Virus record (IMG/VR): IMGVR_UViG_3300045988_078288 | Origin: a virus | Reading direction: 5' to 3' (one strand) | DNA: 64,000 bases | In this document: piece after piece, positions 7,041 to 24,667 of the stretch | Layout: every line of letters starts with the position of its first letter | Position numbering within the stretch: the stretch's first letter is position 1 | The notes under the pieces: generated by a model | Databases searched by the model: none | Told to the model about the DNA's origin: nothing | What the model saw: only the letters and a program-made list of their open reading frames with translations | Translations under genes and position numbers: made by a program

Positions 7041-7113
7041 CGCAACAGTTGAGGAAGCGATATGGGCAGGAGCATACATCGAGATAGATTTATGGTGCAA
7101 TAAAATAAAATGA
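6994..7113 (+). CDS. 39-aa ORF (below cutoff), ATGA-coupled to the next ORF
   Basis: MALKDEIQKWLREHPDATVEEAIWAGAYIEIDLWCNKIK. It overlaps the 3' end of 6144..7040, so it is uncertain. Confidence 0.3.
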   Translation: MALKDEIQKWLREHPDATVEEAIWAGAYIEIDLWCNKIK

Positions 7114-7238
7114 CAATGACAACAACCGGAATAATATTACTCGTAGCCTACGTCGCTTTTGTGGTAGGATCAATCGGCTACACAATCGGCTTCCTTCACG
7201 GAAACTCCGCAAAACATAGCGAATATAATGAACTTTAG
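7110..7238 (+). CDS. 42-aa single-TM peptide (below cutoff)
   Basis: MTMTTTGIILLVAYVAFVVGSIGYTIGFLHGNSAKHSEYNEL. Its ATG overlaps the TGA of the previous ORF. Confidence 0.35.
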   Translation: MTMTTTGIILLVAYVAFVVGSIGYTIGFLHGNSAKHSEYNEL

Positions 7239-7241
7239 CCT

Positions 7242-7379
7242 ATGGAAACAATGGATAAAGAAGTCTACGAAATCAAGAAAGACGGCATGACGCGAGCAGA
7301 ACGTAGAGCATACCAAAGAAATCTGAAGAAGTATGACAAAAGTAAAGATTGGAAAGACAGCCATCCCGCTGCCCATTGA
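7242..7379 (+). CDS. 45-aa basic ORF (below cutoff)
   Basis: METMDKEVYEIKKDGMTRAERRAYQRNLKKYDKSKDWKDSHPAAH. It overlaps 7333..7524 by 47 nt, so only one of the two may be real. Confidence 0.3.
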   Translation: METMDKEVYEIKKDGMTRAERRAYQRNLKKYDKSKDWKDSHPAAH

Positions 7380-7524
7380 TGACAAACCCGACATCATTCG
7401 TTATATCGTCAAATACAAGAAACACTGGTGGAGCAGATGGAAGTATGTCAAGGAACATGGCGTACCGAAGCTGTACACGAAAGAAGAGATAGAGAAACTA
7501 ATCCCTAAGTACACGGGAGCGTAA
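7333..7524 (+). CDS. hypothetical protein
   Basis: 63-aa track ORF. Confidence 0.4.
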   Translation: MTKVKIGKTAIPLPIDDKPDIIRYIVKYKKHWWSRWKYVKEHGVPKLYTKEEIEKLIPKYTGA

Positions 7525-7635
7525 TCAGGATTGCCAAGTTGCAACCTCCGTACAACGTAAATAACGGACACTGGCGTGGACGTGTGAGAAAAAGGAAAAT
7601 TCTACCACCACGCATTTAAACTAAAAACAACAGAT

Positions 7636-7851
7636 ATGGCAAACGAAAACAACAAACCTTATTTTCTTTTGGTGTTCGAGAGAGGTGACACCATGCCGAC
7701 TATTATGTCAGCGGAAACAATATCCGAGATATACCCAAACGCTTACGACAAAACAATGGATATTATAACCGTAAATGGCGATAATATGGGCTTCGAGAAC
7801 GTCGAGTCTTTCAAAATGGTTCCTGCCGAGGAAATTAACTTTAACATGTAA
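7636..7851 (+). CDS. hypothetical protein
   Basis: 71-aa ORF in a co-directional array. Confidence 0.55.
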   Translation: MANENNKPYFLLVFERGDTMPTIMSAETISEIYPNAYDKTMDIITVNGDNMGFENVESFKMVPAEEINFNM

Positions 7852-7862
7852 CAACAACAGAT

Positions 7863-8189
7863 ATGAAGAAAACAATCAAAGAATTTATTAACAGGCTGCG
7901 CGATGCGTGGTCTATAATAAGAGGGCACAATTATGTTTTTATTCGCTATGACGAGGACACAAGCGAACAAGAGATGTTCCGCATGATAAGTGCTGTCTTT
8001 GGCGCACATTGGCTTAGAAACGACGACAATGTGAATTATTTCTCCCGGGCAAATGTGTTGTTTGACTTACTGGATGACACAAACAGTGTCATGCTGCTCA
8101 CAAAGGAAGCTGACGGCAGGCTGACTTACTGCTACGACTGCAAGTCGGAAGAAGATTTCAACGACTTAATCAACATGGAGGTGAAGTAA
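7863..8189 (+). CDS. hypothetical protein
   Basis: 108-aa ORF, tightly packed. Confidence 0.6.
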   Translation: MKKTIKEFINRLRDAWSIIRGHNYVFIRYDEDTSEQEMFRMISAVFGAHWLRNDDNVNYFSRANVLFDLLDDTNSVMLLTKEADGRLTYCYDCKSEEDFNDLINMEVK

Positions 8190-8190
8190 T

Positions 8191-8355
8191 ATGGAAAGTG
8201 AGCTTTATTTTATCTACATGAATGGCAATAGCTACTTCAAAGTTGAAGATGGCGTTGTCTATTCGCAAGGCAAGAAGACCGACGTATCGCCCGACAAACT
8301 CTCCGACTTCCTTGCAATAGCGAAGGAGCTTGGATTTATAACTGGTAAGCTATGA
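8191..8355 (+). CDS. 54-aa ORF (below cutoff)
   Basis: MESELYFIYMNGNSYFKVEDGVVYSQGKKTDVSPDKLSDFLAIAKELGFITGKL. It fills the gap exactly and has an ATGA overlap with the 8352 start. Confidence 0.45.
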   Translation: MESELYFIYMNGNSYFKVEDGVVYSQGKKTDVSPDKLSDFLAIAKELGFITGKL

Positions 8356-8537
8356 AAGTCGTACTGACATTAGACAACGGAGAGAAATTTATCGCAGATA
8401 TTTATCCTCTCCAAGGCAAGAAACAACACAGACCACGTTTCCACGACGAGTACGAACGTTGGTTTGTAGAAGAGTTTAACAAGGCGCAGCCACGAGCTGC
8501 CCACAAGGTGGTGAAGGCGCACATACTAAGAAACTAA
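8352..8537 (+). CDS. hypothetical protein
   Basis: 61-aa ORF. Confidence 0.5.
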   Translation: MKVVLTLDNGEKFIADIYPLQGKKQHRPRFHDEYERWFVEEFNKAQPRAAHKVVKAHILRN

Positions 8538-8549
8538 TAATACAATAAT

Positions 8550-8888
8550 ATGACAGAAGAAAGATTTTACTGCGAACGCCCGAGATGTAGCGTTCACAAC
8601 AAAAAGACGAAGGCTCTTGCAAACAGCTTGGAGTTCTTCAAAAACGCCGAGTTTGGTTTCGGTGAGGACTTTACTCCCGAAATGTTTTTCGACCGCCTTA
8701 AAGAAGGCGTTGCAAGACTCAACTGCAAATACAAAGGCAGAGAGATTGAGGTCACGATGATGCGCTTCGGTGGTACAATATCGTACGACTTCAAGGACAA
8801 TCCTAACAGCGACGCCTGTCTTGGTGGCTTGACTCTTATGCCAATAGTAACAACTATTTACAACATAAACAAGTTTAAAGTCGAATAA
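8550..8888 (+). CDS. hypothetical protein
   Basis: 112-aa ORF. Confidence 0.6.
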   Translation: MTEERFYCERPRCSVHNKKTKALANSLEFFKNAEFGFGEDFTPEMFFDRLKEGVARLNCKYKGREIEVTMMRFGGTISYDFKDNPNSDACLGGLTLMPIVTTIYNINKFKVE

Positions 8889-9787
8889 TGATAGGAATAG
8901 TATTAACAATCATTAATACCGCCTTTTTTGCGGGAACATGGTACTTTCTCGGCAGAGGTTCGATATACGCAAAACTAATTAAGGAATTACGAGAGGCGTT
9001 AGAAGTCATAGGCGCGCAGGAAACTATGATACAGGCTTACAAAATGAAGTATAACACAGAGAAAACGGAGAAAATGGAAAACAAAATTAACATTGCGGAA
9101 ATACTCCGCGATATGCCAAAAGGCACAAAGCTATATTCGCCGCTGTTCGGCAAATGCGAGCTTGAAGAAGTTATTAACGACAAAGAGTATCAAATCTCTG
9201 TTTATATTGGAGGTGAACAGGCGTTTAGAACTTTTACAAAAGACGGTTGTTATTTTTCTAACATAGAGGGTAGTGGATGCGTCCTCTTTCCTTCTTCAAA
9301 GATGCGTTGCTGGAGCAAGTTCTTCAAGCGTGGCGATATTGTGTATAATCCACACAGCCAAATGTACGCTGTATTTGAGTGCTGGGCAAATGATGATTAC
9401 ACAGAGTTTAATACCACAATCAACTATTATGATGACCATACATTTGGAGAAGAAGAAGTCTGCACCACGAATTGCTTTGTAAAAGCTACCGACAAACAGA
9501 GAGTAGAGTTTATTGAAGCGGCAGAAAAGCACTATGGCGGCAAGTATAACCCCGAAACGCTGCAAGTAGAGCCTGTTAAGGTTGCTGAACCTAAGTGTTC
9601 GTTCAAGCCGTTCGACAAGGTGTTGGTGAGATATAACGAAGATAGCGTATGGCGTTGTGAATTCTTCTCTAACTACAATACATTCAATAAACGATACCCT
9701 TACGTCTGTTTATCAGGTGTCTACAAGTACTGCATCCATTACGATGGCAATCAACACCTTTTAGGTACGGATAAATCTCCCGAATAA
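8888..9787 (+). CDS. hypothetical protein with N-terminal TM helix
   Basis: 299 aa. N-terminal hydrophobic segment, a short coiled coil, and a Cys/Trp/Tyr-rich remainder. Confidence 0.7.
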   Translation: MIGIVLTIINTAFFAGTWYFLGRGSIYAKLIKELREALEVIGAQETMIQAYKMKYNTEKTEKMENKINIAEILRDMPKGTKLYSPLFGKCELEEVINDKEYQISVYIGGEQAFRTFTKDGCYFSNIEGSGCVLFPSSKMRCWSKFFKRGDIVYNPHSQMYAVFECWANDDYTEFNTTINYYDDHTFGEEEVCTTNCFVKATDKQRVEFIEAAEKHYGGKYNPETLQVEPVKVAEPKCSFKPFDKVLVRYNEDSVWRCEFFSNYNTFNKRYPYVCLSGVYKYCIHYDGNQHLLGTDKSPE

Positions 9788-9791
9788 CAGC

Positions 9792-10043
9792 ATGGCAAAA
9801 GACTTCTCGCTTGCAAATGTCAATTTCCGCGAGACAGGACATATCGCTTTCGAAGACGAGTATATCACATCGTATGTGTCAACGGACATCGTGCCAAAGA
9901 TATACATGAGCGTGAATACTCCTCGTGACGCAACAGGGCTTGTTTCAGGCAAGCCTAAGCGTTACTACCGCACACGATACAGTCACTGGGTAACGGAAAA
10001 GACATTTGCCAAGCAATATCAGAAAATAAGAGAAAAATTCTAA
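9792..10043 (+). CDS. hypothetical protein
   Basis: 83-aa ORF. Confidence 0.55.
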   Translation: MAKDFSLANVNFRETGHIAFEDEYITSYVSTDIVPKIYMSVNTPRDATGLVSGKPKRYYRTRYSHWVTEKTFAKQYQKIREKF

Positions 10044-10045
10044 GT

Positions 10046-10597
10046 ATGATAAATCTTTCTTTAAATGTGCACGACTTCCTCAATGCGGTTGAGGGTTTCG
10101 CAAGAGGTTCGCACCTCCGGCAGCACGTCTGGCAGGAGATTGTATATAAATCAATTCCACAGATGTCAGACGACGATATGGACTTTCTTTGGTTCTATAT
10201 GCGCCGCGACATCTTCGAATGCTACTTCTACGAGCTAAACGGTAAGAAGAACACGCATTTCGGCTATGAGGATTTTATGCACGCGCTCGCTGCTTTGCAC
10301 AGAGGAAACCGCTACATGGTGACATTTTACAACGAGATAGAGCACAAGCAGCTCCAAGCTCTCTGCTACCGCTTTGAAGGCGAATATCATCCGCTTTATC
10401 TTTACATCGGGGGCAAGGTAGTCGGCAAGACGAAGAAAAGCAGCGGCTTGCAATCGTTCAATGCGTCTGTTCCGAACGAGTGGATAAAGGCAGTTGCAAA
10501 GCACAAGATGCCCGAAAACGAACACGTAGAACTCGGCAGAGAAGAATGGTGGAATGACTTGGAAATTTACGACAACTTTAAAACAAAATTATTATGA
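10046..10597 (+). CDS. hypothetical protein
   Basis: 183-aa ORF. Confidence 0.65.
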   Translation: MINLSLNVHDFLNAVEGFARGSHLRQHVWQEIVYKSIPQMSDDDMDFLWFYMRRDIFECYFYELNGKKNTHFGYEDFMHALAALHRGNRYMVTFYNEIEHKQLQALCYRFEGEYHPLYLYIGGKVVGKTKKSSGLQSFNASVPNEWIKAVAKHKMPENEHVELGREEWWNDLEIYDNFKTKLL

Positions 10598-10935
10598 TTG
10601 ACGAAAAGAAAATACAAGAAGCAGCAGTCGGCAAGTTTAATGTAGGAGGCTTGGTGAATACTGTCGAACGAATTGCCTTTAAAGAAGGTGTTGAATGGTT
10701 TAAGAAAGCTCTTTGGCATAGCCAGGATGAAATTCCAGAAGATGGAAGGATAATTCTTGTAAAGGGATGGTATGATTGCAAAAGGTCAGGAGATTATATC
10801 ATAATTAATACTACCGAAGACATAAACTACAGTGATGTTGATCCTGATAGAAAGTTTCAATGGGAGTGCTTTTGTGAACGTGCTGTGACACCTATTACAT
10901 GGTGTTACATAGAGGACTTGCTGCCTAACAAATAA
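10594..10935 (+). CDS. hypothetical protein (possibly DUF551-like)
   Basis: 113 aa. The pattern W..QDEIPEDGRIILV...W.YIEDLLP resembles DUF551. This is a weak call. Confidence 0.6.
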   Translation: MIDEKKIQEAAVGKFNVGGLVNTVERIAFKEGVEWFKKALWHSQDEIPEDGRIILVKGWYDCKRSGDYIIINTTEDINYSDVDPDRKFQWECFCERAVTPITWCYIEDLLPNK

Positions 10936-10946
10936 ATATCAAGTAT

Positions 10947-11321
10947 ATGGAACAGAGATATATAGCCGGTGATTGGGTGAGATATATAGGAGTAGCCTCA
11001 CCAAGCGTCGTGCAAATTATAGAAGTGAGAGAGGAAAAACTTTTAATTGATCTCGGCGAATGTAACTGGTACCTTGCAGACCGCAGTGAAGTGGATTCTA
11101 TCCGTTTAACTGGCGAAATTCTCGAAAATAATGGGTGGGAAAAGAGTCGCATATACTTTACGAATAGACGTATTCCAAGAATCAAACTTTGCTCAGACGA
11201 ATCAGAATCCAAGTGGTCTGTTTTAATAAATGGCGACATTATGGGAGGTTATATCTATAATGTTCACGATTTACAGCATATCCTATTTGCCTTTCGGATT
11301 GAACAAGAAATAGAGGTGTAG
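10947..11321 (+). CDS. hypothetical protein, paralog of 11372..11827
   Basis: 124 aa. The C-terminal motif VHDLQHILFAFRIEQEIEV is shared with the next gene. Confidence 0.65.
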   Translation: MEQRYIAGDWVRYIGVASPSVVQIIEVREEKLLIDLGECNWYLADRSEVDSIRLTGEILENNGWEKSRIYFTNRRIPRIKLCSDESESKWSVLINGDIMGGYIYNVHDLQHILFAFRIEQEIEV

Positions 11322-11371
11322 GCATGAAAGATATAGACGAGATGTAGACAACTATGTAAAAACTACAGAAT

Positions 11372-11827
11372 ATGATTAAACCAGAAGACCTAAGAATAGG
11401 CGACCTTGTAATGGTCAGCAATGATAACTGCATGATACCCAAAGGAGCACTTTGCGAGGTTGTAGACATAGACTCCGAACGGGCATGTGAAGACAAGAAG
11501 GGGCTTGCGGGTCTGCTTCAAACTGTTAGAGAAGAATGGGAGTTCTCTCACGGTGTTTGGTGTAATAACATTGAAGGTATACCTCTTACGCCTAAACTCC
11601 TCGAAAAGAACGGGTTTAAGGAAGAGCAGCACCAAAAAGAAGGCACTTCGGAATGGTACGACTACTATCATTACGACCTCGGCATTAATATCGTGTACGA
11701 GGTCGAGGAGAAAGAAAGCAAGTTCGCCGTTTATCTTGACGGCAAAAAGTTACGAGAAATTAAATACATTCACGAACTCCAACATATCCTTTGGGCGTTG
11801 GGGTTGAACGCAGAACTAAAAGTATAA
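11372..11827 (+). CDS. hypothetical protein, paralog of 10947..11321
   Basis: 151 aa. C-terminal motif IHELQHILWALGLNAELKV. Confidence 0.65.
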   Translation: MIKPEDLRIGDLVMVSNDNCMIPKGALCEVVDIDSERACEDKKGLAGLLQTVREEWEFSHGVWCNNIEGIPLTPKLLEKNGFKEEQHQKEGTSEWYDYYHYDLGINIVYEVEEKESKFAVYLDGKKLREIKYIHELQHILWALGLNAELKV

Positions 11828-11834
11828 AAGAGAT

Positions 11835-12113
11835 ATGAAATTTGGTATTATTGATTTTATGACGGCATCGCTTCAGATAGCCTTCATCGTAATGAAACTC
11901 TGCGGAGCAATCAGTTGGTCGTGGTGGTTAGTTATGCTGCCCATTCTCTTGGTTGTAGTGTTTAACGTTCTCGTACTCCTTCTTTACGTTTGCATAGAGA
12001 AGTATAAGTCGCATCTACTCTTCAAGCAGTATGGCACCGACAATAAGTTGGCTATTCGCTTGAAAAAGATGCAGCAGGAAAGGGAGAATCTTATGAAGCA
12101 GAAGAATAAGTAA
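11835..12113 (+). CDS. small membrane protein (2 TM)
   Basis: 92 aa with two hydrophobic helices and a basic tail. Confidence 0.6.
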   Translation: MKFGIIDFMTASLQIAFIVMKLCGAISWSWWLVMLPILLVVVFNVLVLLLYVCIEKYKSHLLFKQYGTDNKLAIRLKKMQQERENLMKQKNK

Positions 12114-12138
12114 TAATGTCTTAACGAAAATATAGAGC

Positions 12139-13314
12139 ATGAAGAACGTAAAGATTTTTGCAAAGACTATCGAGGCGGAAGCAATGAAACAGATAGAAAA
12201 CTTGGCAACGAGCAAGGCTTACCGCGACTGCAAGATACGCATTATGCCTGACTGTCATGCGGGTAAGGGATGCACAATAGGTACGGTAATTCAGACCGCC
12301 GGCAAGGTGGTGCCCAACACCGTGGGCGTTGACATCGGTTGCGGTATGCTCGTGTGGGATTTAGGCTTTGCCAACATCGATATGGCGATTCTCGACCGCA
12401 TCATTAACGACAACATTCCAAGCGGATTCAATGTGCATGAGAAGCCTTTGTCGTCAGAGATGGTTGCCCTTATGCACCATGAAATACAAGAATTTCTTCC
12501 TTCGTGGGAGAAATACTTTGACCTTGACTATGTACTGCGTTCGCTCGGCACTCTTGGAGGTGGCAACCACTTTATTGAGGTGAACGTGGACGACGAAGGG
12601 TGCAAGTATCTCGTAGTACATTCGGGTAGCCGCAATCTGGGCGTAAAAATATGCCAACATTTTCAGCAGTTGGCATCAAGACAATGCGACAACAGTGAGG
12701 AACGTGGACGTATAATTTCTGAACTGAAAGCTCAGGGCAGACAGAGCGAGATAAACGATGCGCTGCGCCAGTTAAAACCCGTTTCTAAAGACATGGCCTA
12801 CATTAGCGGTCCCACGCTTGGCAATTACTATGATGCCATGCGCATGTGTCAGCATTATGCCGACTTGAACCGTTTCCTTATGGCGCAAACCATAATTAAA
12901 AGTCTTGAACTAAAGTCTACAGGTCGTGTATTCACCACCGTGCACAACTACATCGACACCTTCGGCATCATCCGCAAGGGAGCAGTGAGCGCAAAGCGTG
13001 GCGAGCCATTGATTATCCCTCTGAACATGCACGACGGTTCGCTTCTGTGTACAGGCAAGGGCAACGACGACTGGCTTCAGTCGGCTCCGCACGGTGCAGG
13101 TAGACTAATGTCGCGCTCGGCGGCCAAGAAGCAGCTCAGCATGAAGGAATACCGACTACAGATGCACGACATTTACTCCACATCGGTATGCGAGTCAACA
13201 ATCGACGAGTCGCCAATGGCGTACAAGCCTGCCGAAGAGATAGAATCGCTTATAGGCGACACGGTAGAGATAGTGAAGAGAATTAAGCCGATATATAACT
13301 TCAAGGCAAAATAA
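12139..13314 (+). CDS. rtcB: RtcB-family RNA ligase (3'-phosphate/5'-hydroxyl)
   Basis: 391 aa. Hallmark segments: IMPDCHAGKGCTIGTV, GGGNHFIEV, HSGSRNLG, APHGAGR. Confidence 0.85.
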   Translation: MKNVKIFAKTIEAEAMKQIENLATSKAYRDCKIRIMPDCHAGKGCTIGTVIQTAGKVVPNTVGVDIGCGMLVWDLGFANIDMAILDRIINDNIPSGFNVHEKPLSSEMVALMHHEIQEFLPSWEKYFDLDYVLRSLGTLGGGNHFIEVNVDDEGCKYLVVHSGSRNLGVKICQHFQQLASRQCDNSEERGRIISELKAQGRQSEINDALRQLKPVSKDMAYISGPTLGNYYDAMRMCQHYADLNRFLMAQTIIKSLELKSTGRVFTTVHNYIDTFGIIRKGAVSAKRGEPLIIPLNMHDGSLLCTGKGNDDWLQSAPHGAGRLMSRSAAKKQLSMKEYRLQMHDIYSTSVCESTIDESPMAYKPAEEIESLIGDTVEIVKRIKPIYNFKAK

Positions 13315-13341
13315 CATAAAAGCGTAGAGTATAACAAAAAT

Positions 13342-14049
13342 ATGAAACAGTACACTGGAACAAAGACAGTGAAGGCTATGCCTATGACAATGGGCGAAGC
13401 CTACGAGCGCAAGCTCTTGAAAGAGGGTGTAAGACCCTCTGAGTGTGAAACAGACAAGGCTGGCTATCTCGTAGAGTACGAGGAAGGCTATCAGTCGTGG
13501 TCGCCAGCAGATGTATTCGAGAAGGCTTACAAGCCGTCTGAAACGTTTGTCAACAGAATGCTTCTTGAACTCGAAGACCTTGAAAAACGCATGAATAAAT
13601 GCGATAACTTTCTTTCTTCGGATGAGTTCAGTGCTTTAGACGCACTTTCTCGTGCTTTGTTGACTGTGCAAAGAGGGGTGATGGGGCAATATTACTTTGT
13701 CTTGGCAGACAGATTTATAAAGGCAAATAAGATGAAAGCTAAGCTGTCCAATTTTACATTCGGCACGGCAGTACTTTATCTTAAAGCAGGTATGGCTGTC
13801 CGCAGAGCTGGTTGGAATGGCAAAGGCTTATTTGTTGTCAAGCAAGTGCCAGCCCATATTACAGCCGACATTATTCCTAACATGCAGTCACTTCCTCAGT
13901 CTGCCAAGGACATCATTATGGCACGTGCTGAGCCACACATCAGCTATACCAACCAGATGCTCATTGTACATCCAGACGGACGTGCCGACTCTTGGGTTCC
14001 GTCTTCGAGTGATGTATTTGCAGAGGACTGGGAGTTGGTAACTGAGTAG
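13342..14049 (+). CDS. multidomain protein with C-terminal DUF2829 (Tad2-like) domain
   Basis: 235 aa. The C-terminal segment FGTAVLYLKAGMAVRRAGWNGKGLFVV...DSWVPSSSDVFAEDWELV fits the DUF2829 signature. Confidence 0.7.
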   Translation: MKQYTGTKTVKAMPMTMGEAYERKLLKEGVRPSECETDKAGYLVEYEEGYQSWSPADVFEKAYKPSETFVNRMLLELEDLEKRMNKCDNFLSSDEFSALDALSRALLTVQRGVMGQYYFVLADRFIKANKMKAKLSNFTFGTAVLYLKAGMAVRRAGWNGKGLFVVKQVPAHITADIIPNMQSLPQSAKDIIMARAEPHISYTNQMLIVHPDGRADSWVPSSSDVFAEDWELVTE

Positions 14050-14072
14050 ATGACACTTATAAATAAACGAAA

Positions 14073-14273
14073 ATGAAAACATATAAATGGAAAATCACCG
14101 CTTTTGTGGTGTGGGTTGTCATAACGCTCATTGTTGTCAGCGTTGCGCTGAGAGGCGTAAGCAAGGCAGATACAGCAACAAATCTGATTAGCGTAGCAAT
14201 CCTTTTATTTTGGACGCTTTTGTCCTTTGCAACGAATTGTTTCACTTTTAAAAATAATAAAAACAATGAGTAA
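14073..14273 (+). CDS. small 2-TM membrane protein
   Basis: 66 aa. Overlaps the start of the SPFH lipoprotein gene. Confidence 0.5.
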   Translation: MKTYKWKITAFVVWVVITLIVVSVALRGVSKADTATNLISVAILLFWTLLSFATNCFTFKNNKNNE

Positions 14274-15069
14274 AATTAAATCAATGTGTATGTTTGTGCT
14301 GCCTATGACAGCATTGTGCTTAACCTCTTGTAGCGAGCGTATCGACGCTGGTTCTGAAGGCATTCTCGTCAACCTTTACGGTTCAGACAAGGGCGTTGAT
14401 GACGTAAGTCTCGTTACCGGTCGTGTGTGGTACAATCCATTTACAGAAGAGGTCTATGAGTACCCGACATTCGTACAGACAATCGACTATCCTGCTTTTA
14501 CCATCAACGCCAAGGATGGTTCTGAGTTTACCGTTGATCCGACGGTATCTCTCAAGATGATCGACGGCAATGCACCGAAAGTGTTCAAGAAGTACCGCAA
14601 GGAACTGAACGACATCATAAATGGTACATTATTCAACTATGTCAAAGATGCGTTCCGTATTCAGCTCAACAAGTACACTACCGATCAGATTGTCAGCAAC
14701 CGTGATATGGTAGAACGTGCTATTGAATCACAACTTAGTAAGGCACTTGCCAAAGAGCACTTCCAGCTTGAACAGCTTACGTCTGGTCTCAAATATCCAA
14801 ACTCCATCGTTGAAGCCGTCAATCAGAAGAACAAAGCTATTCAGGAGGCACAGCGAGCACTCAACGAAGTGGCTGTAAAGAAGGCTGAAGCAGAAAAGAT
14901 GCTTGTACAGGCACGTGCCGAACGAGAGGCTAATGAACTTAAATCCACAACACTTACTCCAGCAATTCTCAAAAAGATGTGGATTGAGAAGTGGGATGGA
15001 TCTGTTCCAACGGTTGTTACAGGAGGAAATACGTCAACATTTTTAGATTTAAGTAAAATTCAAAAATGA
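14266..15069 (+). CDS. SPFH/Band-7 (prohibitin-like) lipoprotein
   Basis: The internal ATG at 14266 gives a lipoprotein signal (MSKIKSMCMFVLPMTALCLTSC). It is followed by an SPFH-like core and an Ala/Glu/Lys coiled coil (AIQEAQRALNEVAVKKAEAEKMLVQARAEREANE). Confidence 0.7.
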   Translation: MSKIKSMCMFVLPMTALCLTSCSERIDAGSEGILVNLYGSDKGVDDVSLVTGRVWYNPFTEEVYEYPTFVQTIDYPAFTINAKDGSEFTVDPTVSLKMIDGNAPKVFKKYRKELNDIINGTLFNYVKDAFRIQLNKYTTDQIVSNRDMVERAIESQLSKALAKEHFQLEQLTSGLKYPNSIVEAVNQKNKAIQEAQRALNEVAVKKAEAEKMLVQARAEREANELKSTTLTPAILKKMWIEKWDGSVPTVVTGGNTSTFLDLSKIQK

Positions 15070-15073
15070 CACA

Positions 15074-15577
15074 ATGAAAAATAGAGTAGTTGAAATAAAT
15101 GATAATGTAGCGGCTATAGAAATTCGATATAAGAATACCACACTATTATGTTACATTAATAAAACTGATTTATCTAAGGTTGCTTCCATAAAAGGCACTT
15201 GGCATATTAACAGGCATAAAAGTGGTCATATTGATGGTGTAAAAACTAAAATCCAAATTGATAAAGTTAGAAAACAAATATGGTTGCATAACTTTATATT
15301 TAACAAATTGGATCCTAACAATGTTATCGACCATATTGATCACAATACTTTAAATAATGTCAGAACAAATCTTAGAGAAGTTAGTAGAGAACAAAATGCT
15401 CAAAATATTTCTACTACTCTAAAAAGTTCAACAACATATAGAAACGTTACCATGGAAGGAGAGAAGTATAGAGTAAGAATTGGAAGACATTCTTTTGGAA
15501 GGTACAATACCTTAGAAGAAGCCATTGATGTGGCAAAAAAGGAAAGAAAAAATATATTTCCTTTGTCTTCTGAATAA
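15074..15577 (+). CDS. HNH homing endonuclease with AP2-type DNA-binding domain
   Basis: 167 aa. HNH_3-like segment IDHIDHNTLNNVRTNLREVSREQNAQN. AP2-like segment YRNVTMEGEKYRVRIGRHSFGRYNTLEEAIDVA. The local sequence is AT-rich. Confidence 0.75.
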   Translation: MKNRVVEINDNVAAIEIRYKNTTLLCYINKTDLSKVASIKGTWHINRHKSGHIDGVKTKIQIDKVRKQIWLHNFIFNKLDPNNVIDHIDHNTLNNVRTNLREVSREQNAQNISTTLKSSTTYRNVTMEGEKYRVRIGRHSFGRYNTLEEAIDVAKKERKNIFPLSSE

Positions 15578-15642
15578 AACGGCAGAATTGCTTTATAATT
15601 CCCGTTTATGGAAACGTGCCGCAGATTATGATGACCAAGTAA

Positions 15643-15690
15643 TTACTAACTTCTCTCCCCAGTGACAGTGGGGAGAGAATTTAGTAATCA
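15643..15690. repeat. long interrupted inverted repeat / hairpin
   Basis: TCTCTCCCCA (15652-15661) pairs with TGGGGAGAGA (15669-15678) across a 7-nt loop. The stem is extended by TTACTAA/TTAGTAA. No U-tract follows. Confidence 0.5.
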
Positions 15691-15697
15691 TAAGACA

Positions 15698-15871
15698 ATG
15701 AATAAAGAAAAAGCTATCGAGAAAATACAATATGCTGTAATGCAAGTAGCTTCTGTATATGCATGTTCTGCTATCTTTGATGAAAAGACAAAGGTAATAG
15801 AAGGCAGACAGAAAGAACTTGAAAAAGCGATTGTCAATTTGCATGATGCACTTAAAGAGTTGGAGGATTGA
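15698..15871 (+). CDS. hypothetical protein
   Basis: This is track ORF 15662..15871. The start is moved to the ATG at 15698 because the upstream part lies in the hairpin. Confidence 0.45.
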   Translation: MNKEKAIEKIQYAVMQVASVYACSAIFDEKTKVIEGRQKELEKAIVNLHDALKELED

Positions 15872-15873
15872 GT

Positions 15874-16029
15874 ATGACAAAATTTAAAGTTATTAGATAT
15901 TGGGACACGTATCCCGATGGAGTTGTTGCAATTTGTGACACAGAGGAAGAGGCAGAAAAGATATGTAGTAAATATCGTAGAAGCCGCAAGCCTATGTACG
16001 ATTATTTAATCAGAAAGGAAGGTGAATAA
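15874..16029 (+). CDS. 51-aa ORF (below cutoff)
   Basis: MTKFKVIRYWDTYPDGVVAICDTEEEAEKICSKYRRSRKPMYDYLIRKEGE. It fills the gap. Confidence 0.4.
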   Translation: MTKFKVIRYWDTYPDGVVAICDTEEEAEKICSKYRRSRKPMYDYLIRKEGE

Positions 16030-16196
16030 TGACCAGAGAAGAGTTGAGAAATAATTATGGAAATGAAATATGCGAGTTATACTGCCGATGGTATTTTACC
16101 AACAGAGCATTTCCTAAGACACTTTGTGGAGGTCATTGTTGTGAGGATGCAGAAGATAGTTTTGCAGATGAACATAATATAGAACTAAAGGATTAA
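16029..16196 (+). CDS. 55-aa Cys-rich ORF (below cutoff)
   Basis: MTREELRNNYGNEICELYCRWYFTNRAFPKTLCGGHCCEDAEDSFADEHNIELKD. Its ATG overlaps the previous TAA. Confidence 0.4.
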   Translation: MTREELRNNYGNEICELYCRWYFTNRAFPKTLCGGHCCEDAEDSFADEHNIELKD

Positions 16197-16210
16197 TATA
16201 ACATTAGAAA

Positions 16211-16501
16211 ATGAAAACAATTATAGCAAAAATGACCTGCGTCTTTTTAACGGCGCCGTTAATTCCAATAATGCTGATAGGTATTATCCCCTACGCTTTA
16301 TTCAAAGGGATTACAAGCGAACGTGTCTGGGATGAATATTTTGATATTTGGAACTCGTTCACCAATTTCCTAATACATCCATACTATAAATACATGGAAA
16401 GAAAAAATTATATAAAAAAGTTGAAGCAGAAGGTGGATTATTATCGCGAGGAGAATGTTAGACTTAATAACGCATTGGAAAAAATTGAAAAAGAAAAATA
16501 A
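16211..16501 (+). CDS. membrane protein
   Basis: 96 aa with an N-terminal hydrophobic region and a C-terminal coiled coil. Confidence 0.55.
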   Translation: MKTIIAKMTCVFLTAPLIPIMLIGIIPYALFKGITSERVWDEYFDIWNSFTNFLIHPYYKYMERKNYIKKLKQKVDYYREENVRLNNALEKIEKEK

Positions 16502-16503
16502 TT

Positions 16504-16857
16504 ATGAAAAAAGAAGAATTAGACAAGCAAATAGATAGATGGCTAAAGCGACGAGAAACAATCAAGCCTTTTATAGATAGAATGGTAAAGTTAAATGTAA
16601 GGCGCGAGGAATTACTTCAAGATATGAAACAACTTCAAGAGGACTATATTAAAGCCTTACCTTTTAAAGTTGGAGATAAGGTTATAGATGAAGCTGGAAA
16701 CGTAGGCTGGCTTTCAAGAATAGTTCCGCATCATACACCATCAGAAAAGTATATGCGAGCAACATTAGGTTTGACATTCTTCTTCTATATGGAAGAGAAA
16801 GACGGCACTCGTGCCAAGCATGATGTTTATACTTACGGACGACCAACTAAACTATAA
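16504..16857 (+). CDS. hypothetical protein
   Basis: 117 aa. Shares the pattern coiled coil + P...DKV...W.S.I with the next ORF. Confidence 0.6.
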   Translation: MKKEELDKQIDRWLKRRETIKPFIDRMVKLNVRREELLQDMKQLQEDYIKALPFKVGDKVIDEAGNVGWLSRIVPHHTPSEKYMRATLGLTFFFYMEEKDGTRAKHDVYTYGRPTKL

Positions 16858-16863
16858 ATAATT

Positions 16864-17046
16864 ATGACAGAAGAAGATTTTGTAAAGCAGATGCGTGCTC
16901 TCAATAAAAAAGAAATAGAGATTGCACGTCAGAAGTATGAACTAAAAAAGCAATACCTTGAAGAATATCCGATACAAATTAACGACAAGGTAGATTGTAA
17001 CGAAAAAGCCTGTTGGGTTAGCAATATTCGTTTCACTACCTTATAG
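16864..17046 (+). CDS. hypothetical protein (short paralog of 16504..16857)
   Basis: 60 aa. Confidence 0.45.
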   Translation: MTEEDFVKQMRALNKKEIEIARQKYELKKQYLEEYPIQINDKVDCNEKACWVSNIRFTTL

Positions 17047-17155
17047 TAAGGTATTTCTTGGTTAGCTACCCCAAGAAGAATGGCGAACGCTCCAATCGTG
17101 AGCAGTGCGCTTGGGGAGTAACAAAAGTATAATAATACAATTAAAGCAGATAGTT

Positions 17156-17572
17156 ATGACAAGAGAGGAAGCAAAAGAAATGCTGCCTATAATACAGGCA
17201 TTTGCAGAAGGTAAAGCCATTGAGATAAGACACGGAGATGCACCGTGGGTTGAAACAAACCGAATAAAAGAAAGCATTTTTGATGATTACCAATATCGCA
17301 TCAAGCCCGAACCCAAGTACCGCCCATTTAAGGATGTCGAAGAGTGTTGGCAGGAGATGCAGAAACATCAGCCGTTTGGGTGGGTAAAGACAATAGCCAA
17401 CATCCCAGAACTACACAATATATCAGCCATTTTCCCAGCTACAGAATTTCCTGTCCTATTGGGTATTGATTTAGAGGAAGGTGAGGCGAGAGAGTATTCA
17501 CTTAAATTGTCTGAAATGTACGATTTATACACATTCGCCGACGGCGCGCCGTTCGGAGCAAAGGAGGAATAG
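17156..17572 (+). CDS. hypothetical phage protein
   Basis: Track ORF with the start moved to the ATG at 17156 (MTREEAKEMLPIIQAFAEGK...). Confidence 0.6.
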   Translation: MTREEAKEMLPIIQAFAEGKAIEIRHGDAPWVETNRIKESIFDDYQYRIKPEPKYRPFKDVEECWQEMQKHQPFGWVKTIANIPELHNISAIFPATEFPVLLGIDLEEGEAREYSLKLSEMYDLYTFADGAPFGAKEE

Positions 17573-17578
17573 CAATCT

Positions 17579-17755
17579 ATGTATGAAAAAATCGGAAAAT
17601 TCGCCGCAACCATGACTTTATCATTATGGACGGTGGTATTACTACGTTTGATAGGATTCGAATTTTCAAAAATGACATTTTGGGTATTCCTTGCAATTTC
17701 ATCAATCGGCACTAACTGGATAGTCGATAAGTTAAACAGTATAAACAAGAAATAG
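17579..17755 (+). CDS. 58-aa membrane protein (below cutoff)
   Basis: MYEKIGKFAATMTLSLWTVVLLRLIGFEFSKMTFWVFLAISSIGTNWIVDKLNSINKK. Preferred over the antisense track ORF 17368..17748. Confidence 0.4.
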   Translation: MYEKIGKFAATMTLSLWTVVLLRLIGFEFSKMTFWVFLAISSIGTNWIVDKLNSINKK

Positions 17756-17757
17756 TT

Positions 17758-18123
17758 ATGAGAATAATCAAATTCAAAGGCAAGCGTCTCGACAATGGCG
17801 AGTGGATATATGGCGACTTACTCCATCTCGTAGATGGTGTGTACATAAGCAACGATAACGGAAATAACATGGCGCAGGTAGACCCCGATACGGTAGGTCA
17901 GTACACAGGACTGAAAGATATGAACGGCAAGGAGATATATGAGGGTGATGTTATCCCTATCGGACCAGATTATAGTGTTGTGATATGGGTGGAAGATTTA
18001 GGAGGCTTCTACCTGAAAGCGGATTATGCAAAATTACCTTATACCAGTCCTTTAGGTGCAATGTTGTGCCGTTACGACATCGAGGTTATTGGCAATATTA
18101 ACGACGACCAGAAAGGAGGCTAA
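17758..18123 (+). CDS. YopX-family protein
   Basis: 121 aa. Pattern: KFKGKRLDNGEWIYGDLL...VGQYTGLKDMNGKEIYEGDVI...IEVIGNINDD. Confidence 0.75.
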   Translation: MRIIKFKGKRLDNGEWIYGDLLHLVDGVYISNDNGNNMAQVDPDTVGQYTGLKDMNGKEIYEGDVIPIGPDYSVVIWVEDLGGFYLKADYAKLPYTSPLGAMLCRYDIEVIGNINDDQKGG

Positions 18124-18124
18124 T

Positions 18125-18307
18125 ATGCAGGAAACGAAAATAACATTTAAGGTTCAAGTGACGTACGATGAGAGTCGTGTCATAATCACAGAACTGGCAA
18201 TGACGCAGCCTATAAGTTTCGGTGTTGCCGCAGGTATCTTTAGAAGCCTTGCAGACTTTCAGGAAGAATGGAATGAGGAACATGACATAGAATTCAAAGA
18301 GCTATGA
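18125..18307 (+). CDS. hypothetical protein
   Basis: 60 aa from the ATG at 18125 (MQETKITFKV...), directly after the YopX stop. Confidence 0.45.
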   Translation: MQETKITFKVQVTYDESRVIITELAMTQPISFGVAAGIFRSLADFQEEWNEEHDIEFKEL

Positions 18308-18438
18308 CACAAGAAGAAGAGAATCAGCACATAAAGAAACTGAAAGACGCAGGGTTTGACTGCAGCACCAGCAGGTCAATAGACGAAATCATACAGCTCT
18401 TGAAGCTATCTTCAGGAGGACTGGAACAAGGAACATAA
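18304..18438 (+). CDS. 44-aa ORF (below cutoff)
   Basis: MTQEEENQHIKKLKDAGFDCSTSRSIDEIIQLLKLSSGGLEQGT. ATGA overlap with the previous ORF. Confidence 0.35.
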   Translation: MTQEEENQHIKKLKDAGFDCSTSRSIDEIIQLLKLSSGGLEQGT

Positions 18439-18450
18439 ACAAAAAGGAAT

Positions 18451-18735
18451 ATGCCAAAATACAAATGGATAGTAGTAGCTTTACTTTTGGTTGCGCTTAC
18501 TATAATAGTAATTCTTTTAAACACCGCTTATGGTGTTATATTAGCTTTAAGCGAATTAATAGCGTTCGGATTATTATATAAAATTGATACAACAATGAAA
18601 CAGGCAGATTATATCAGACTGACGGCACAGATTGCCGTGCTGAAAGAAATTGCCGTTGATTACAGCGGCAAGACGATAGACAACATCATACAACAGTTGG
18701 AAGCAATTAAGAAGGAGGTGACGGATGAAGATTAG
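18451..18735 (+). CDS. membrane protein
   Basis: 94 aa with two N-terminal TM helices. Confidence 0.55.
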   Translation: MPKYKWIVVALLLVALTIIVILLNTAYGVILALSELIAFGLLYKIDTTMKQADYIRLTAQIAVLKEIAVDYSGKTIDNIIQQLEAIKKEVTDED

Positions 18736-18976
18736 AAAAACAAAGAAGCGTTACAAAACCATGTTTCGGACGCAGTATTGCTGCACTAAAGTAAAGTTTA
18801 AAAAGGTAAGCACATCAATCGAAACAGAACCACGCCAATACCCTAAAATGTGCGGCGTGTTTATTACGTACGAGGTGCGTACGTGGTATCGTAAAAGAGA
18901 ACTAACAACTCGATACGTGCGCATAAGAATTGCGCAGTTAAAAGTAAAACATCACTCAAAATCAAATAACAATTAA
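18725..18976 (+). CDS. very basic small protein
   Basis: 83 aa, Lys/Arg-rich, immediately upstream of the radical SAM gene. Confidence 0.45.
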   Translation: MKIRKTKKRYKTMFRTQYCCTKVKFKKVSTSIETEPRQYPKMCGVFITYEVRTWYRKRELTTRYVRIRIAQLKVKHHSKSNNN

Positions 18977-18978
18977 CA

Positions 18979-19989
18979 ATGGAAATACTCAAAGAAATCA
19001 AAGTTCCTACAGGTGAAATCTACACCGCAAAAGGAGATAAAGGCGTGTTGGAGTTTCTGACAGTAGCCGACTATGGCAAAGACGCAAATATCAAAGCCGA
19101 CTTCCTCGGCATAACAAGAGAGCTGAATGGTGTGCCGAACGGAACGCCGATGCCCTTAACCGAAAAATGGGTGATAACAATTTCTACACAGTACGGCTGT
19201 TCAATGAACTGCAAGTTCTGCGACGTGCCGAAAGTCGGACCGGGACGCAACGTAACTCTGAACGACCTGCGTAACGAGATAACAACGGCGTTAAGTATGC
19301 ACCCAGAGGTTAACCATACCAAGCGTCTTAACGTACACTATGCGCGCATGGGCGAGCCGACATGGAACGAGGCTGTAATCGAACACGCACGTTTCTTCTT
19401 GCGTGATGATATTATTCCTTACATCGGAAATTCGCTTGTGCATCCTGTAGTAAGCACGATGCTTCCGAAGCATAATCGAGGCTTAAAAGACTTCATTCGT
19501 GAATGGGTTAGGGTAAAGAATCTCGACTACAACGGAAACGCAGGCTTGCAGTTCTCCATAAACTCTACCGACGACGCACAGCGAGAATACCTATTCTCGG
19601 GAAACGCCTTACCATTGAGAGATATTGCAGAACTTGCTGACACCCTCGTATCTCCGTGGGGTCGCAAGTACGCTCTTAACTTCGCGCTTGCCGACGACTC
19701 TATCATTGACGGCAAGGTGCTTGCTTCGATGTTTGACCCACGCAAGTTCATGTGTAAGATTACACCACTTCACAGAACAAACAGCTGCGAAGCCAACCAT
19801 ATTCAGACAAGCGGAGGTTACGACTCGTTTGTGCCGTACAAGAAAGTGGAAGAAGATTTGAAGGCAAACGGATTTGATGTAATCATATTCGTTCCGTCGT
19901 ATGACGAGGACAACGGGCTGATTACTTGTGGCAATGCAATCCTGTCCGGCAAGAAGCCGACATCAAGCTACAAGGAGGTAATATTTTAA
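18979..19989 (+). CDS. radical SAM enzyme, RlmN/Cfr-like RNA methyltransferase family
   Basis: 336 aa. ISTQYGCSMNCKFCDV contains the CxxxCxxC cluster in the RlmN context SSQVGC...C.FC. Also YARMGEPTWN (compare MGMGEPL.N) and a C-terminal DNGLITCGNAI (compare DIDAACGQL). Confidence 0.7.
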   Translation: MEILKEIKVPTGEIYTAKGDKGVLEFLTVADYGKDANIKADFLGITRELNGVPNGTPMPLTEKWVITISTQYGCSMNCKFCDVPKVGPGRNVTLNDLRNEITTALSMHPEVNHTKRLNVHYARMGEPTWNEAVIEHARFFLRDDIIPYIGNSLVHPVVSTMLPKHNRGLKDFIREWVRVKNLDYNGNAGLQFSINSTDDAQREYLFSGNALPLRDIAELADTLVSPWGRKYALNFALADDSIIDGKVLASMFDPRKFMCKITPLHRTNSCEANHIQTSGGYDSFVPYKKVEEDLKANGFDVIIFVPSYDEDNGLITCGNAILSGKKPTSSYKEVIF

Positions 19990-20003
19990 TCTGATAAACA
20001 AAA

Positions 20004-20339
20004 ATGAGCAAAAAGAAAATTTACATATCATCACCGATTACCGGCTACAACCTCAACGAGCGACACAAGTTCTTCGCTCGGATTGAAACAGAACTGACAA
20101 TTCTCGGCTACAAGGCAGTCAATCCCATGAGTAAACCTTTATCCGACTCTGCGCCGTACACGGAGCACATGAAAGAGGACTTACGCCTGCTCCTCGGCTG
20201 CGACGGCATTGTTGTACCGAACCGATGGCGGTGCTCGAAAGGCTGTGAAATGGAACGCCGTGTGGCTGACGCTTGCGGAATACCGGTTGTCGGCGTGATA
20301 GGCGAGACGCACGATTTGCAAATCTTAAACGCGATATAA
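20004..20339 (+). CDS. DUF4406 / nucleoside 2-deoxyribosyltransferase-like protein
   Basis: 111 aa. KIYISSPITGYNLNERHKFFARIETELTILGYKAVNP fits the DUF4406 N-terminus. Confidence 0.6.
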   Translation: MSKKKIYISSPITGYNLNERHKFFARIETELTILGYKAVNPMSKPLSDSAPYTEHMKEDLRLLLGCDGIVVPNRWRCSKGCEMERRVADACGIPVVGVIGETHDLQILNAI

Positions 20340-20341
20340 GC

Positions 20342-20731
20342 ATGAGTGCAAGTCAGTTAATGAGCCGAACCCCCAAAAGGGCGTATATTATCGCGCCAAG
20401 TGTAAAGCAGAAAGAGGAAATACTAAAGAGCATTGACCGCTATTGTTCGCTGTATTACATCACAATGGGTTCTGCATACAACATTGCCCAAACAGCGATG
20501 ATAGACGCTTACAACGCAATTAAAGATGACAAAAAGCTATACCGTCAGCAGACAAAGCAAAGCATTAACAAGGCTCTTGCTGCATACAACACATGGGATG
20601 CGAAGATGCGCTTTGTCCTCGCCGACCGCTATCAGCTTTGGCTTGACCTATCCGATGCGTCGGATAGCGGAACTGAAACCGCTCGTTACAACGCTCTATT
20701 ACAGCATCGACAACTACTTCTTGAAGAATAA
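20342..20731 (+). CDS. hypothetical protein (possibly the 5' part of a split gene)
   Basis: 129 aa from the ATG at 20342. Confidence 0.5.
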   Translation: MSASQLMSRTPKRAYIIAPSVKQKEEILKSIDRYCSLYYITMGSAYNIAQTAMIDAYNAIKDDKKLYRQQTKQSINKALAAYNTWDAKMRFVLADRYQLWLDLSDASDSGTETARYNALLQHRQLLLEE

Positions 20732-23728: not shown

Positions 23729-24667
23729 TTGACAGTTATGAACAATCAAGAATTTCTTAAAAGTATCACCTTGGATGGTGAGGAGTGGCGAGATATAATC
23801 GGCTTTGAAGGGCTTTACAAGGTGTCTTCTTATGGTAGAGTTGCGTCTTTGGAACGACACGTAAACAATCGCTATCAGGATGTTTATAAGCAACCACATT
23901 TACTCAGAGCGAGTAAAACAAAAAGAGAAAAAACACCAAGTGTTACACTCTCTATAGACGGCAAAGATAGTAAAAGACATATTCCTTATCTTGTAGCCCA
24001 ACATTTTCTTTGTCAACCAGATAATAATTACGTACTTGAAGCCAAAGATGGTGATTTCTACAACTGCAAGGTTGATAATCTTTATTGGAGAAGAAAGAAA
24101 CGAGCGCGCAAACTGTACGACACTGCTTCACTTGAAGGTGAAGTATGGAAGGCGATACAAGGATATGAAGGCTTATATGAAATATCTTCTTTAGGAAGAA
24201 TAAAGTCTTCATATAGCAGAAAGATTTTAAACCCCTCTTCTGTTCATGGCTACAAATACGTTTCTTTAGCAAAAAACTCGACGATTCGTAAGCACTACAT
24301 TCACCGACTTGTAGCAAAAGCATTTGTTCCTAATCCTAACAACTATCCCTGTATAGACCACATTAACACAATCAGGACAGATAACACTGCGAGAAATTTA
24401 AGATGGTGTACCTATTTGCAAAATATGTTAAATCCAATAACAAACAGCAAAAGAACTATCAGTGTTTGCAAGTTAAGAAACGGAGTATTAATGCATATCT
24501 ACGAGTCTATGGCAGAAGCGCATAAAGATGGTTTTTCCTCAGCCAGCATATTTAAATGTTGCAGAGGTTTGCAGAGTAGCCATAGAGGTTACGAATGGAT
24601 GTACACCTCCGATTATAAATCTCTTATCAATAAGCCAAAGAACTCTCAATCTACCGATATAGATTAG
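23729..24667 (+). CDS. HNH homing endonuclease with duplicated NUMOD4 modules
   Basis: 312 aa. Two NUMOD4-like segments (EEWRDIIGFEGLYKVSSYGRV and EVWKAIQGYEGLYEISSLGRI). HNH_3 segment IDHINTIRTDNTARNLRWCTYLQN. AT-rich and on the opposite strand to all its neighbours. Confidence 0.8.
   Translation: MTVMNNQEFLKSITLDGEEWRDIIGFEGLYKVSSYGRVASLERHVNNRYQDVYKQPHLLRASKTKREKTPSVTLSIDGKDSKRHIPYLVAQHFLCQPDNNYVLEAKDGDFYNCKVDNLYWRRKKRARKLYDTASLEGEVWKAIQGYEGLYEISSLGRIKSSYSRKILNPSSVHGYKYVSLAKNSTIRKHYIHRLVAKAFVPNPNNYPCIDHINTIRTDNTARNLRWCTYLQNMLNPITNSKRTISVCKLRNGVLMHIYESMAEAHKDGFSSASIFKCCRGLQSSHRGYEWMYTSDYKSLINKPKNSQSTDID

Follow-up and report, generated by a model that had tools for sequence, protein, structure and literature searches.

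A stand-alone RtcB-type RNA ligase gene carried as an optional cassette by a Prevotella-type prophage lineage

The virus record IMGVR_UViG_3300045988_078288 of IMG/VR contains a gene for an RNA ligase of the RtcB family, located some 10 kb away from a cluster of unusual tRNA-like RNAs. The DNA considered here is a stretch of 64,000 nucleotides, referred to as the window. It comprises the left ~64 kb of the element; another ~30 kb of phage DNA lie beyond it. The RtcB gene occupies positions 12139-13314 on the + strand, begins with ATG, and encodes an RNA 3'-phosphate/5'-OH ligase of 391 aa with an intact active site. A preliminary description of the same DNA had assigned the gene to RtcB from four motifs, all of which are present in the open reading frame: DCHAGKG (residues 38-44), GGGNHFIEV (140-148), HSGSRNLG (161-168), and APHGAGR (316-322). 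It had also called for a confirmation by hidden Markov models, which has now been obtained. The Pfam family RtcB (PF01139) was matched with E=9.8e-64 and 216.6 bits (cutoff 27), and PHROG 1075, annotated as tRNA splicing ligase, with E=2.3e-127 over residues 2-390. BLASTP aligned residues 4-389 collinearly with residues 13-407 of the 408 in Escherichia coli K-12 RtcB (32% identity, E=7e-52), and HMMER alignments covered the conserved blocks of the Pyrococcus horikoshii enzyme. An AlphaFold2 model built on a shallow alignment was of moderate quality (predicted local distance difference test 65.5, predicted template modelling score 0.68). With this model, Foldseek returned RtcB structures for all 16 significant matches in the PDB (TMq 0.42-0.49). 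Pfam, PHROG, BLASTP, and Foldseek thus all agree on the family.

The catalytic set can be followed residue by residue in these alignments. The metal-ligand pair D65/C68 corresponds to D75/C78 in E. coli and D95/C98 in P. horikoshii, N143/H144 to N167/H168 and N202/H203, and H161 to H185 and H234, respectively. H269 aligns with E. coli H281, R322 with E. coli R341, and D38/H40 with D65/H67 of P. horikoshii, while E147 is found alongside N143/H144. H318, which is part of the HGAGR motif within APHGAGR, aligns with E. coli H337 and P. horikoshii H404, and by this correspondence we take it to be the histidine that accepts GMP in the His-GMP intermediate. All ligands of the two-metal site (D65, C68, H144, H161, and H269) are found in the alignment to both enzymes; for the last of them, P. 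horikoshii H329 was presumed equivalent to H269 by way of E. coli H281. The roles attributed to these residues, as metal ligands, GTP contacts, and guanylylated histidine, likewise follow the published work on P. horikoshii and E. coli RtcB. The metal and GTP ligands were a second point that the preliminary description had wished to see verified, and it had named inactivating substitutions of the catalytic His and Cys residues as evidence against its proposal. Every residue is in place, the catalytic His and Cys are intact, and the set is unchanged in 16 of 16 homologues with 68-97% identity.

Pairwise comparison with 10 alleles gave dN/dS values of 0.11-0.23, as expected under purifying selection. 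Because the catalytic residues are present and invariant and dN/dS is this low, the gene is, on sequence grounds, a functional and selected RtcB. Its product presumably joins 3'-phosphate or 2',3'-cyclic-phosphate ends to 5'-OH ends in a reaction dependent on GTP and Mn2+. The protein belongs to the short bacterial type of ~390 aa; P. horikoshii RtcB is longer by ~90 aa.

Partners in RNA repair or splicing were searched for among the 84 open reading frames of the window at Pfam sensitivity (E<=0.01; for EndA/Sen and archease the families PF01974, PF02778, and PF01951), a scan that covers the window but not the ~30 kb beyond it. No RtcA, archease, Ro60/TROVE, EndA, Pnkp, Rnl, Hen1, or PrfH was detected there, nor was an RtcR-type regulator. 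The preliminary description had recognised no Rsr/Ro60, RtcA, archease, or EndA, and the Pfam results agree with it. The likeness to E. coli RtcB extends over the full length of the protein and includes the aligned residues D75, C78, N167, H168, H185, H281, H337, and R341. The setting differs from the RtcR-regulated rtcBA operon of that species, since the window has neither an RtcA cyclase nor RtcR/sigma-54 regulation, and the gene is viral cargo rather than part of a chromosomal stress operon.

Relatives of the locus were retrieved by means of the anchor gene DUF6291, which is located between the tRNA-like cluster and RtcB. Their comparison delimits a single-gene cassette at 12115-13332, with no strand assigned. 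In the related locus L112 exactly this segment is missing, as shown by BLASTN breakpoints, in a clean indel that leaves 4 nt between the flanks. The cassette has a GC content of 0.49, as against 0.38-0.46 in the neighbouring genes. The slot is bordered on one side by a small membrane protein of 92 aa (11835-12113, + strand, with a weak match to Tmemb_185A; the left border in the window) or by p151. On the other side is a gene for a 235-aa protein (13342-14049, + strand) in which a Tad2-like domain (DUF2829; PF11195, E=4e-17) is fused to a crAss001_48-related domain (PF21825, E=2.8e-13); it forms the right border. In some relatives the slot is empty; in others it is occupied by an unrelated phrog_874 protein or by one of two RtcB alleles. 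One RtcB allele is that of the window; the other is ~65% identical to it but 91% identical in the 3' third, and by this pattern of identity reads as a recombinant. Among the matches listed, close RtcB alleles (65-97%) also occur in unrelated neighbourhoods of other viral contigs. The slot comparisons among the relatives revealed no companion gene moving together with RtcB. RtcB is a mobile, optional cassette of one prophage lineage, and it adds one well-supported case of RtcB as mobile phage cargo in an uncultivated, Prevotella-type lineage.

The alternative occupant of the slot, the phrog_874 protein of ~195-228 aa (MKKIMFNDKYGLTQAVLEGRKTQTRR...), is present in many relatives (L103-L123) and is frameshifted in L116. 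In other phages its gene is found just upstream of RtcB, at 7856-8467 in L009 and 8994-9647 in L010. This protein had no Pfam match, and phrog_874 is a family of unassigned function; its interpretation as an ASCH/RNA-binding protein was not supported.

The start codon of RtcB lies 25 nt past the stop codon of the 92-aa membrane protein gene, and both genes are probably co-transcribed. No Bacteroidetes-type promoter motif was found upstream of RtcB on the + strand. From the 25-nt gap, the long rightward operon, and the lack of a promoter motif of its own, we infer that RtcB would be expressed during lytic development.

The tRNA-like RNAs form a cluster at 1428-3112 on the + strand. It comprises four elements, E1 (1428-1557), E2 (1679-1792), E3 (2120-2207), and E4 (2952-3111), and a structured RNA. 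The existence of these elements, stated in the preliminary description, is borne out by an Rfam tRNA match, by folding, and by covarying stems. The Rfam tRNA model matched E3 with 37.3 bits, with 21 nt in the anticodon loop where the model has 6. In E1, E2, and E4 the acceptor, D, and T arms were recognised by eye and by folding. Compensatory changes in the acceptor, T, and D stems were found across ~16 relatives. In E3, AGGAGAG/CTCTCCT is replaced by AGGAGGG/CCCTCCT and ACTGG/CCAGT by GCTGG/CCAGC; in E4, GAAGTTG/CAACTTC is replaced by GGGATTG/CAATCCC. The centres of the elements are of another kind. E3 occurs in a form A with a 10-bp hairpin in the anticodon region and in a form B, seen in five relatives, from which the anticodon arm is wholly absent. 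From one sublineage to another the centre of E2 changes in both sequence and length, with conserved ends on either side; that of E4 is a conserved non-tRNA domain of ~90 nt. In E1 a purine-purine 26/44 pair is retained and the T loop is 8 nt long. ARAGORN in default mode found no canonical tRNA in the window, and in intron mode it found no canonical intron-bearing tRNA in the window or in 42 related loci. Since form B of E3 lacks the arm, the centre of E2 is variable, that of E4 is unlike tRNA, and the searches with ARAGORN and for bulge-helix-bulge (BHB) motifs were negative, E1-E4 do not represent decoding tRNAs with an interruption. Roles as mimics, decoys, or processing signals are conceivable.

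Two further conserved segments accompany these elements. Between E2 and E3, positions 1830-2095 form a non-coding stretch of ~270 nt that is 88-100% identical in at least 15 relatives, a conservation exceeding that of the adjacent protein genes. It contains several GNRA-type loops and clear compensatory changes, with GUCGA/UCGGC replaced by GCCGG/CCGGC and GCACG..CGUGC by GCGCAAU..AUUGCGC. The stretch matches no Rfam family at E<=10 and looks like an undescribed structured RNA. Between E1 and E2, at 1632-1668, a conserved GC-rich hairpin is followed by a run of T (CCCGCAAATCTGCGAAGACAAGCGGG-TTTT) and resembles a terminator; it is kept in L099 with a compensatory change. More unusual in this genome than the ligase are the tRNA-like RNAs, together with the structured RNA lying among them.

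In archaea and metazoa, RtcB serves as the ligase of tRNA splicing. Its presence in one genome with tRNA-like RNAs, both being real, speaks for a splicing or processing pathway, in which an endonuclease would cut out the inserts of E1-E4 and RtcB would join the halves. Such a pathway for the insert-bearing tRNA-like genes had been one of two hypotheses in the preliminary description. Under relaxed settings ARAGORN can indeed be made to read E3 as a tRNA that contains an "intron" of 15 nt. The remaining output at these settings was noise, and the forced model has C33 and a Ser(GGA) identity without a long variable arm. Form B of E3 has no arm at all, rather than a restored 7-nt anticodon loop, although its acceptor and T stems covary, and both the length and the sequence of the E2 insert are hypervariable. 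BHB-like candidates did not exceed what shuffling gives; they numbered 0, 0, 2, and 2 in E1-E4, compared with shuffle means of 1.2, 1.1, 0.65, and 2.3, and no insert was bracketed by them. Archaeal and metazoan splicing, which combines EndA, RtcB, and archease, shares one ligase family with the window. It differs in that here there is no BHB-bracketed intron, none at position 37/38 of a decodable tRNA, and no EndA/Sen, archease, or other RNA endonuclease among the 84 window reading frames. In the region 1000-4000 Rfam yielded nothing beyond the E3 tRNA match at E<=10, and thus no Y RNA, group I intron, tmRNA, or self-cleaving ribozyme. Enzymes of the RNase P/Z type, acting on tRNA-like ends, leave 5'-phosphate and 3'-OH, which RtcB cannot join.

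The distribution of the two features was considered decisive against this pathway. Among the relatives, 14 loci keep the cluster and also cover the slot; RtcB is in the slot in only three of them (L106, L111, and L125) and is missing from it in the other 11. This count concerns the syntenic slot, and RtcB could sit elsewhere in those genomes. An RtcB-anchored list from IMG/VR missed contigs known to carry RtcB and was not used to establish absence elsewhere in the genomes of the relatives. A host RtcB, if there is one, could also stand in for the phage enzyme, so that co-occurrence alone does not decide the matter. The RtcB cassette moves by itself, and its presence is uncoupled from the tRNA-like RNAs, which argues only against an obligate dependence. 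Taken with the lack of BHB motifs and of an endonuclease, these observations make a joint splicing pathway highly improbable. The analysis in this way removes an attractive but unsupported link between RtcB and the tRNA-like RNAs.

The element is a temperate siphovirus-like prophage, and Prevotella is its probable host. The preliminary description had called the ligase phage-encoded, which is correct: the window contains a large terminase, an SPP1-type portal, a tape-measure protein of 2556 aa, a CI-type repressor (150-644, - strand), and an antirepressor. Other genes encode HTH/Xis-like proteins, a recombination module of the RecT/YqaJ type, and a dUTPase. A first guess of a crAss-like phage, suggested by the giant reading frames, was rejected, since the 2556-aa frame is the tape-measure protein and the portal is of the SPP1 type. 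No isolated phage was related at the nucleotide level by megablast. In metagenome contigs the repressor end adjoins host pyrG, yidC, and peptidase genes, and the similarity stops at window position 60. GTDB species genomes gave a single match, an uncultured Prevotella metagenome-assembled genome (MAG). The only RtcB relative found there, with 65% identity at 10001-11173 of L135 (MAG CAAGPV010000014.1), has TGA in frame in place of the codon for Cys31, a residue invariant elsewhere; the gene is a pseudogene, or else the assembly is in error.

A segment of 15.3 kb, corresponding to window positions 60-15348 and represented by L003, L005, and L132, is a prophage remnant that has kept an identical RtcB. 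Its order is repressor, tRNA-like cluster, recombination genes, RtcB, Tad2-like gene, Band_7 gene, and, at the end, an HNH gene that is truncated. Host pyrG/yidC and DUF3078/alpha-amylase genes flank the segment in several independent metagenome assemblies. In L006 a shared module (window 8082-20342, 98% identical) stops at a tyrosine integrase (18229-19341) beside the shikimate dehydrogenase gene of the host, so that differently organised integrated elements have the RtcB-containing module in common.

The prophage nature of the element and the host-flanked remnants with identical RtcB are in favour of a benefit to the lysogen. RtcB would then act in lysogenic conversion, repairing the RNA of the lysogen after stress or after attack by tRNase toxins of competitors, such as those of the colicin, contact-dependent inhibition, or type VI secretion type. 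The chromosomal RtcB of Salmonella was found to respond to tRNA damage (PMC7790460). The position of RtcB speaks against this role, since it follows the upstream gene by 25 nt in an early operon that the CI-type repressor should silence. It lacks its own promoter motif, Pfam revealed no RtcR-type regulator, and the copy in the sole GTDB genome match has an in-frame stop at codon 31. A function for the lysogen is therefore considered unlikely.

A substrate other than tRNA has also been considered. It could be rRNA, as for RtcB2-PrfH in ribosome rescue, phage mRNAs cut by RNase toxins, or DNA, with capping or ligation of 3'-phosphate ends. Such activity on DNA has been reported for some RtcB paralogues. 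The short bacterial type of the protein and its matches to PRK09588 and to TIGR03073 "release_rtcB" point in this direction, and the chemistry of RtcB is not limited to tRNA (PMC9304027, PMC7790460). Both matches are far under their cutoffs, with 140.9 vs 407 bits and 105 vs 271.8 bits, respectively, and no RF-1/PrfH domain was found in the window by Pfam. The resemblance to the RtcB2-PrfH module thus consists of the short type and a weak TIGR03073 match, while the PrfH neighbour is missing. The best match is instead the phage clade PHROG 1075, whose members often lie near tRNA genes. A dedicated non-tRNA substrate seems decidedly unlikely.

RtcB homologues are widespread among phages. A tblastn search found them in 695 of 50,697 phage records, of which 221 belong to phages of Mycobacterium, 63 to those of Bacillus, and 58 to those of Listeria. 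The protein of the window is of the same family and length as the RtcB of the PHROG 1075 clade, which includes BS-TP1 gp87 and the proteins of SPO1-like Bacillus phages and subcluster K1 mycobacteriophages, and is 45-55% identical to those of isolates. The nearest isolate is Bacteroides phage BS-TP1 (50%), in which RtcB is also paired with a DUF2829/Tad2-like gene, but in the opposite order. As in this clade, RtcB is a stand-alone gene among small early genes. Canonical tRNA genes were located within 10 kb of RtcB in 30 of 80 viral RtcB loci among those listed, and the RtcB gene of L057 is part of a tRNA cluster, with tRNA-Ile on one side and tRNA-Gln/Trp on the other. This proximity fits a tRNA-related role for the phage clade. 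The window differs in having no canonical tRNA gene and in the presence or absence of RtcB as a cassette within one prophage lineage. A protective role of phage RtcB against host tRNA cleavage was proposed in 2011 for cluster K1 mycobacteriophages (PMC3203893) and again in 2021 for jumbo phages (PMC7824862). Work on Cas13a suggested RNA ligases as possible factors against type VI CRISPR systems (PMC11042736). The RtcB described here is in this respect an ordinary phage accessory, and the counter-defence idea is already published.

The other hypothesis of the preliminary description, a repair of tRNAs cut by host nucleases, is favoured here, with a likelihood judged somewhat better than even. 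Stand-alone RtcB would be an optional counter-defence cargo that reseals RNAs, most likely tRNAs, cut by host RNases. According to this proposal, RtcB would be made from the rightward early/middle operon after induction or infection. Metal-independent defence RNases of the host, such as HEPN proteins, anticodon nucleases of the PrrC/RloC kind, or Cas13 with its collateral activity, would nick tRNAs and other RNAs. RtcB could then join the resulting "dirty" ends, 2',3'-cyclic phosphate or 3'-phosphate and 5'-OH, directly and with no need for a phage partner. Resealed tRNAs would keep translation going for the phage. The proposal fits the observations because RtcB is an accessory and swappable cassette under purifying selection, lies in an operon of lytic direction next to a Tad2-like gene, and belongs to a clade in which tRNA genes are often near. 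The compatibility with such a cassette and neighbour is what stands of the earlier hypothesis, and the substrate and the role themselves are inferred.

Several points weigh on the other side. Most relatives of the prophage do without RtcB. Adjacency of RtcB and a Tad2-like gene was seen in just 7 of the 86 RtcB loci listed, so that the context of an "anti-defence island" is weak and a general linkage between the two genes was rejected. The timing of expression is read from gene order alone. The 15.3-kb remnant with RtcB in host chromosomes could mean a benefit to the host. In the searchable literature no experimental test of any phage RtcB against a defence system was found, only proposals. 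The natural presence and absence of the cassette at 12115-13332 offers a clean genetic handle on the long-proposed defeat of RNA-cleaving immunity by RtcB.

Resealing by RtcB would most likely work like the action of the T4 pair Pnkp and Rnl1 on tRNA-Lys cleaved by PrrC, in the proposed logic of a phage enzyme undoing an anticodon-nuclease defence. The proteins are unrelated. T4 first heals the ends with kinase and phosphatase activities and then seals 3'-OH to 5'-phosphate with ATP, whereas RtcB, a single gene, seals 3'-phosphate or cyclic phosphate to 5'-OH with GTP; neither Pnkp nor Rnl was found in the window by Pfam. The rsr-yrlBA-rtcBA operon of Salmonella resembles the present case in combining RtcB and tRNA-like non-coding RNAs in one genome. 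For YrlA, competitive inhibition of an anticodon nuclease has been proposed (PMC7790460). The window differs from this operon, and from rtcBA-rtcR, in that no RtcA, RtcR, or Ro60/TROVE was found by Pfam and no YrlA by Rfam at E<=10. Its tRNA-like RNAs lie ~9-10.7 kb from RtcB and do not share an operon with it, their presence is uncoupled from that of RtcB, and their RNA ends are at the acceptor stem, in the fashion of tRNA and unlike YrlA.

The two features could nevertheless be two layers of one strategy against tRNases, in which the tRNA mimics, with anticodons missing or scrambled, would occupy host nucleases that target tRNA, as decoys or competitive inhibitors in the way suggested for YrlA, and the optional RtcB would reseal cut tRNAs or cut decoys. 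In Prevotella this could include the collateral cleavage by Cas13b/HEPN, with RtcB acting as a type VI anti-CRISPR by repair. Such a combination would be of high interest if true, and is regarded as improbable.

Further genes lie next to RtcB. The protein encoded at 13342-14049 is 92-100% conserved among the relatives, those without RtcB included. Tad2 proteins (Thoeris anti-defence 2) are sponges for Thoeris signalling molecules, and the domain matches make this product a candidate for such a sponge against Thoeris, encoded by a Prevotella prophage. It is followed by an accessory gene for a Band_7/SPFH lipoprotein-like product (14227-15069, + strand; PF01145, E=3.7e-23; PHROG 200) and by an HNH_3 homing-type endonuclease gene (15074-15577, + strand). 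The latter has a GC content of 0.29, compared with 0.456 for the window, and encodes a DNA nuclease, hence no partner in RNA processing. Its low GC content and its position at the breakpoint of the remnant suggest a recent insertion and recombination activity. A second HNH_3 homing-type endonuclease gene is located at 23729-24667, and one of the two HNH_3 genes has NUMOD4 motifs.

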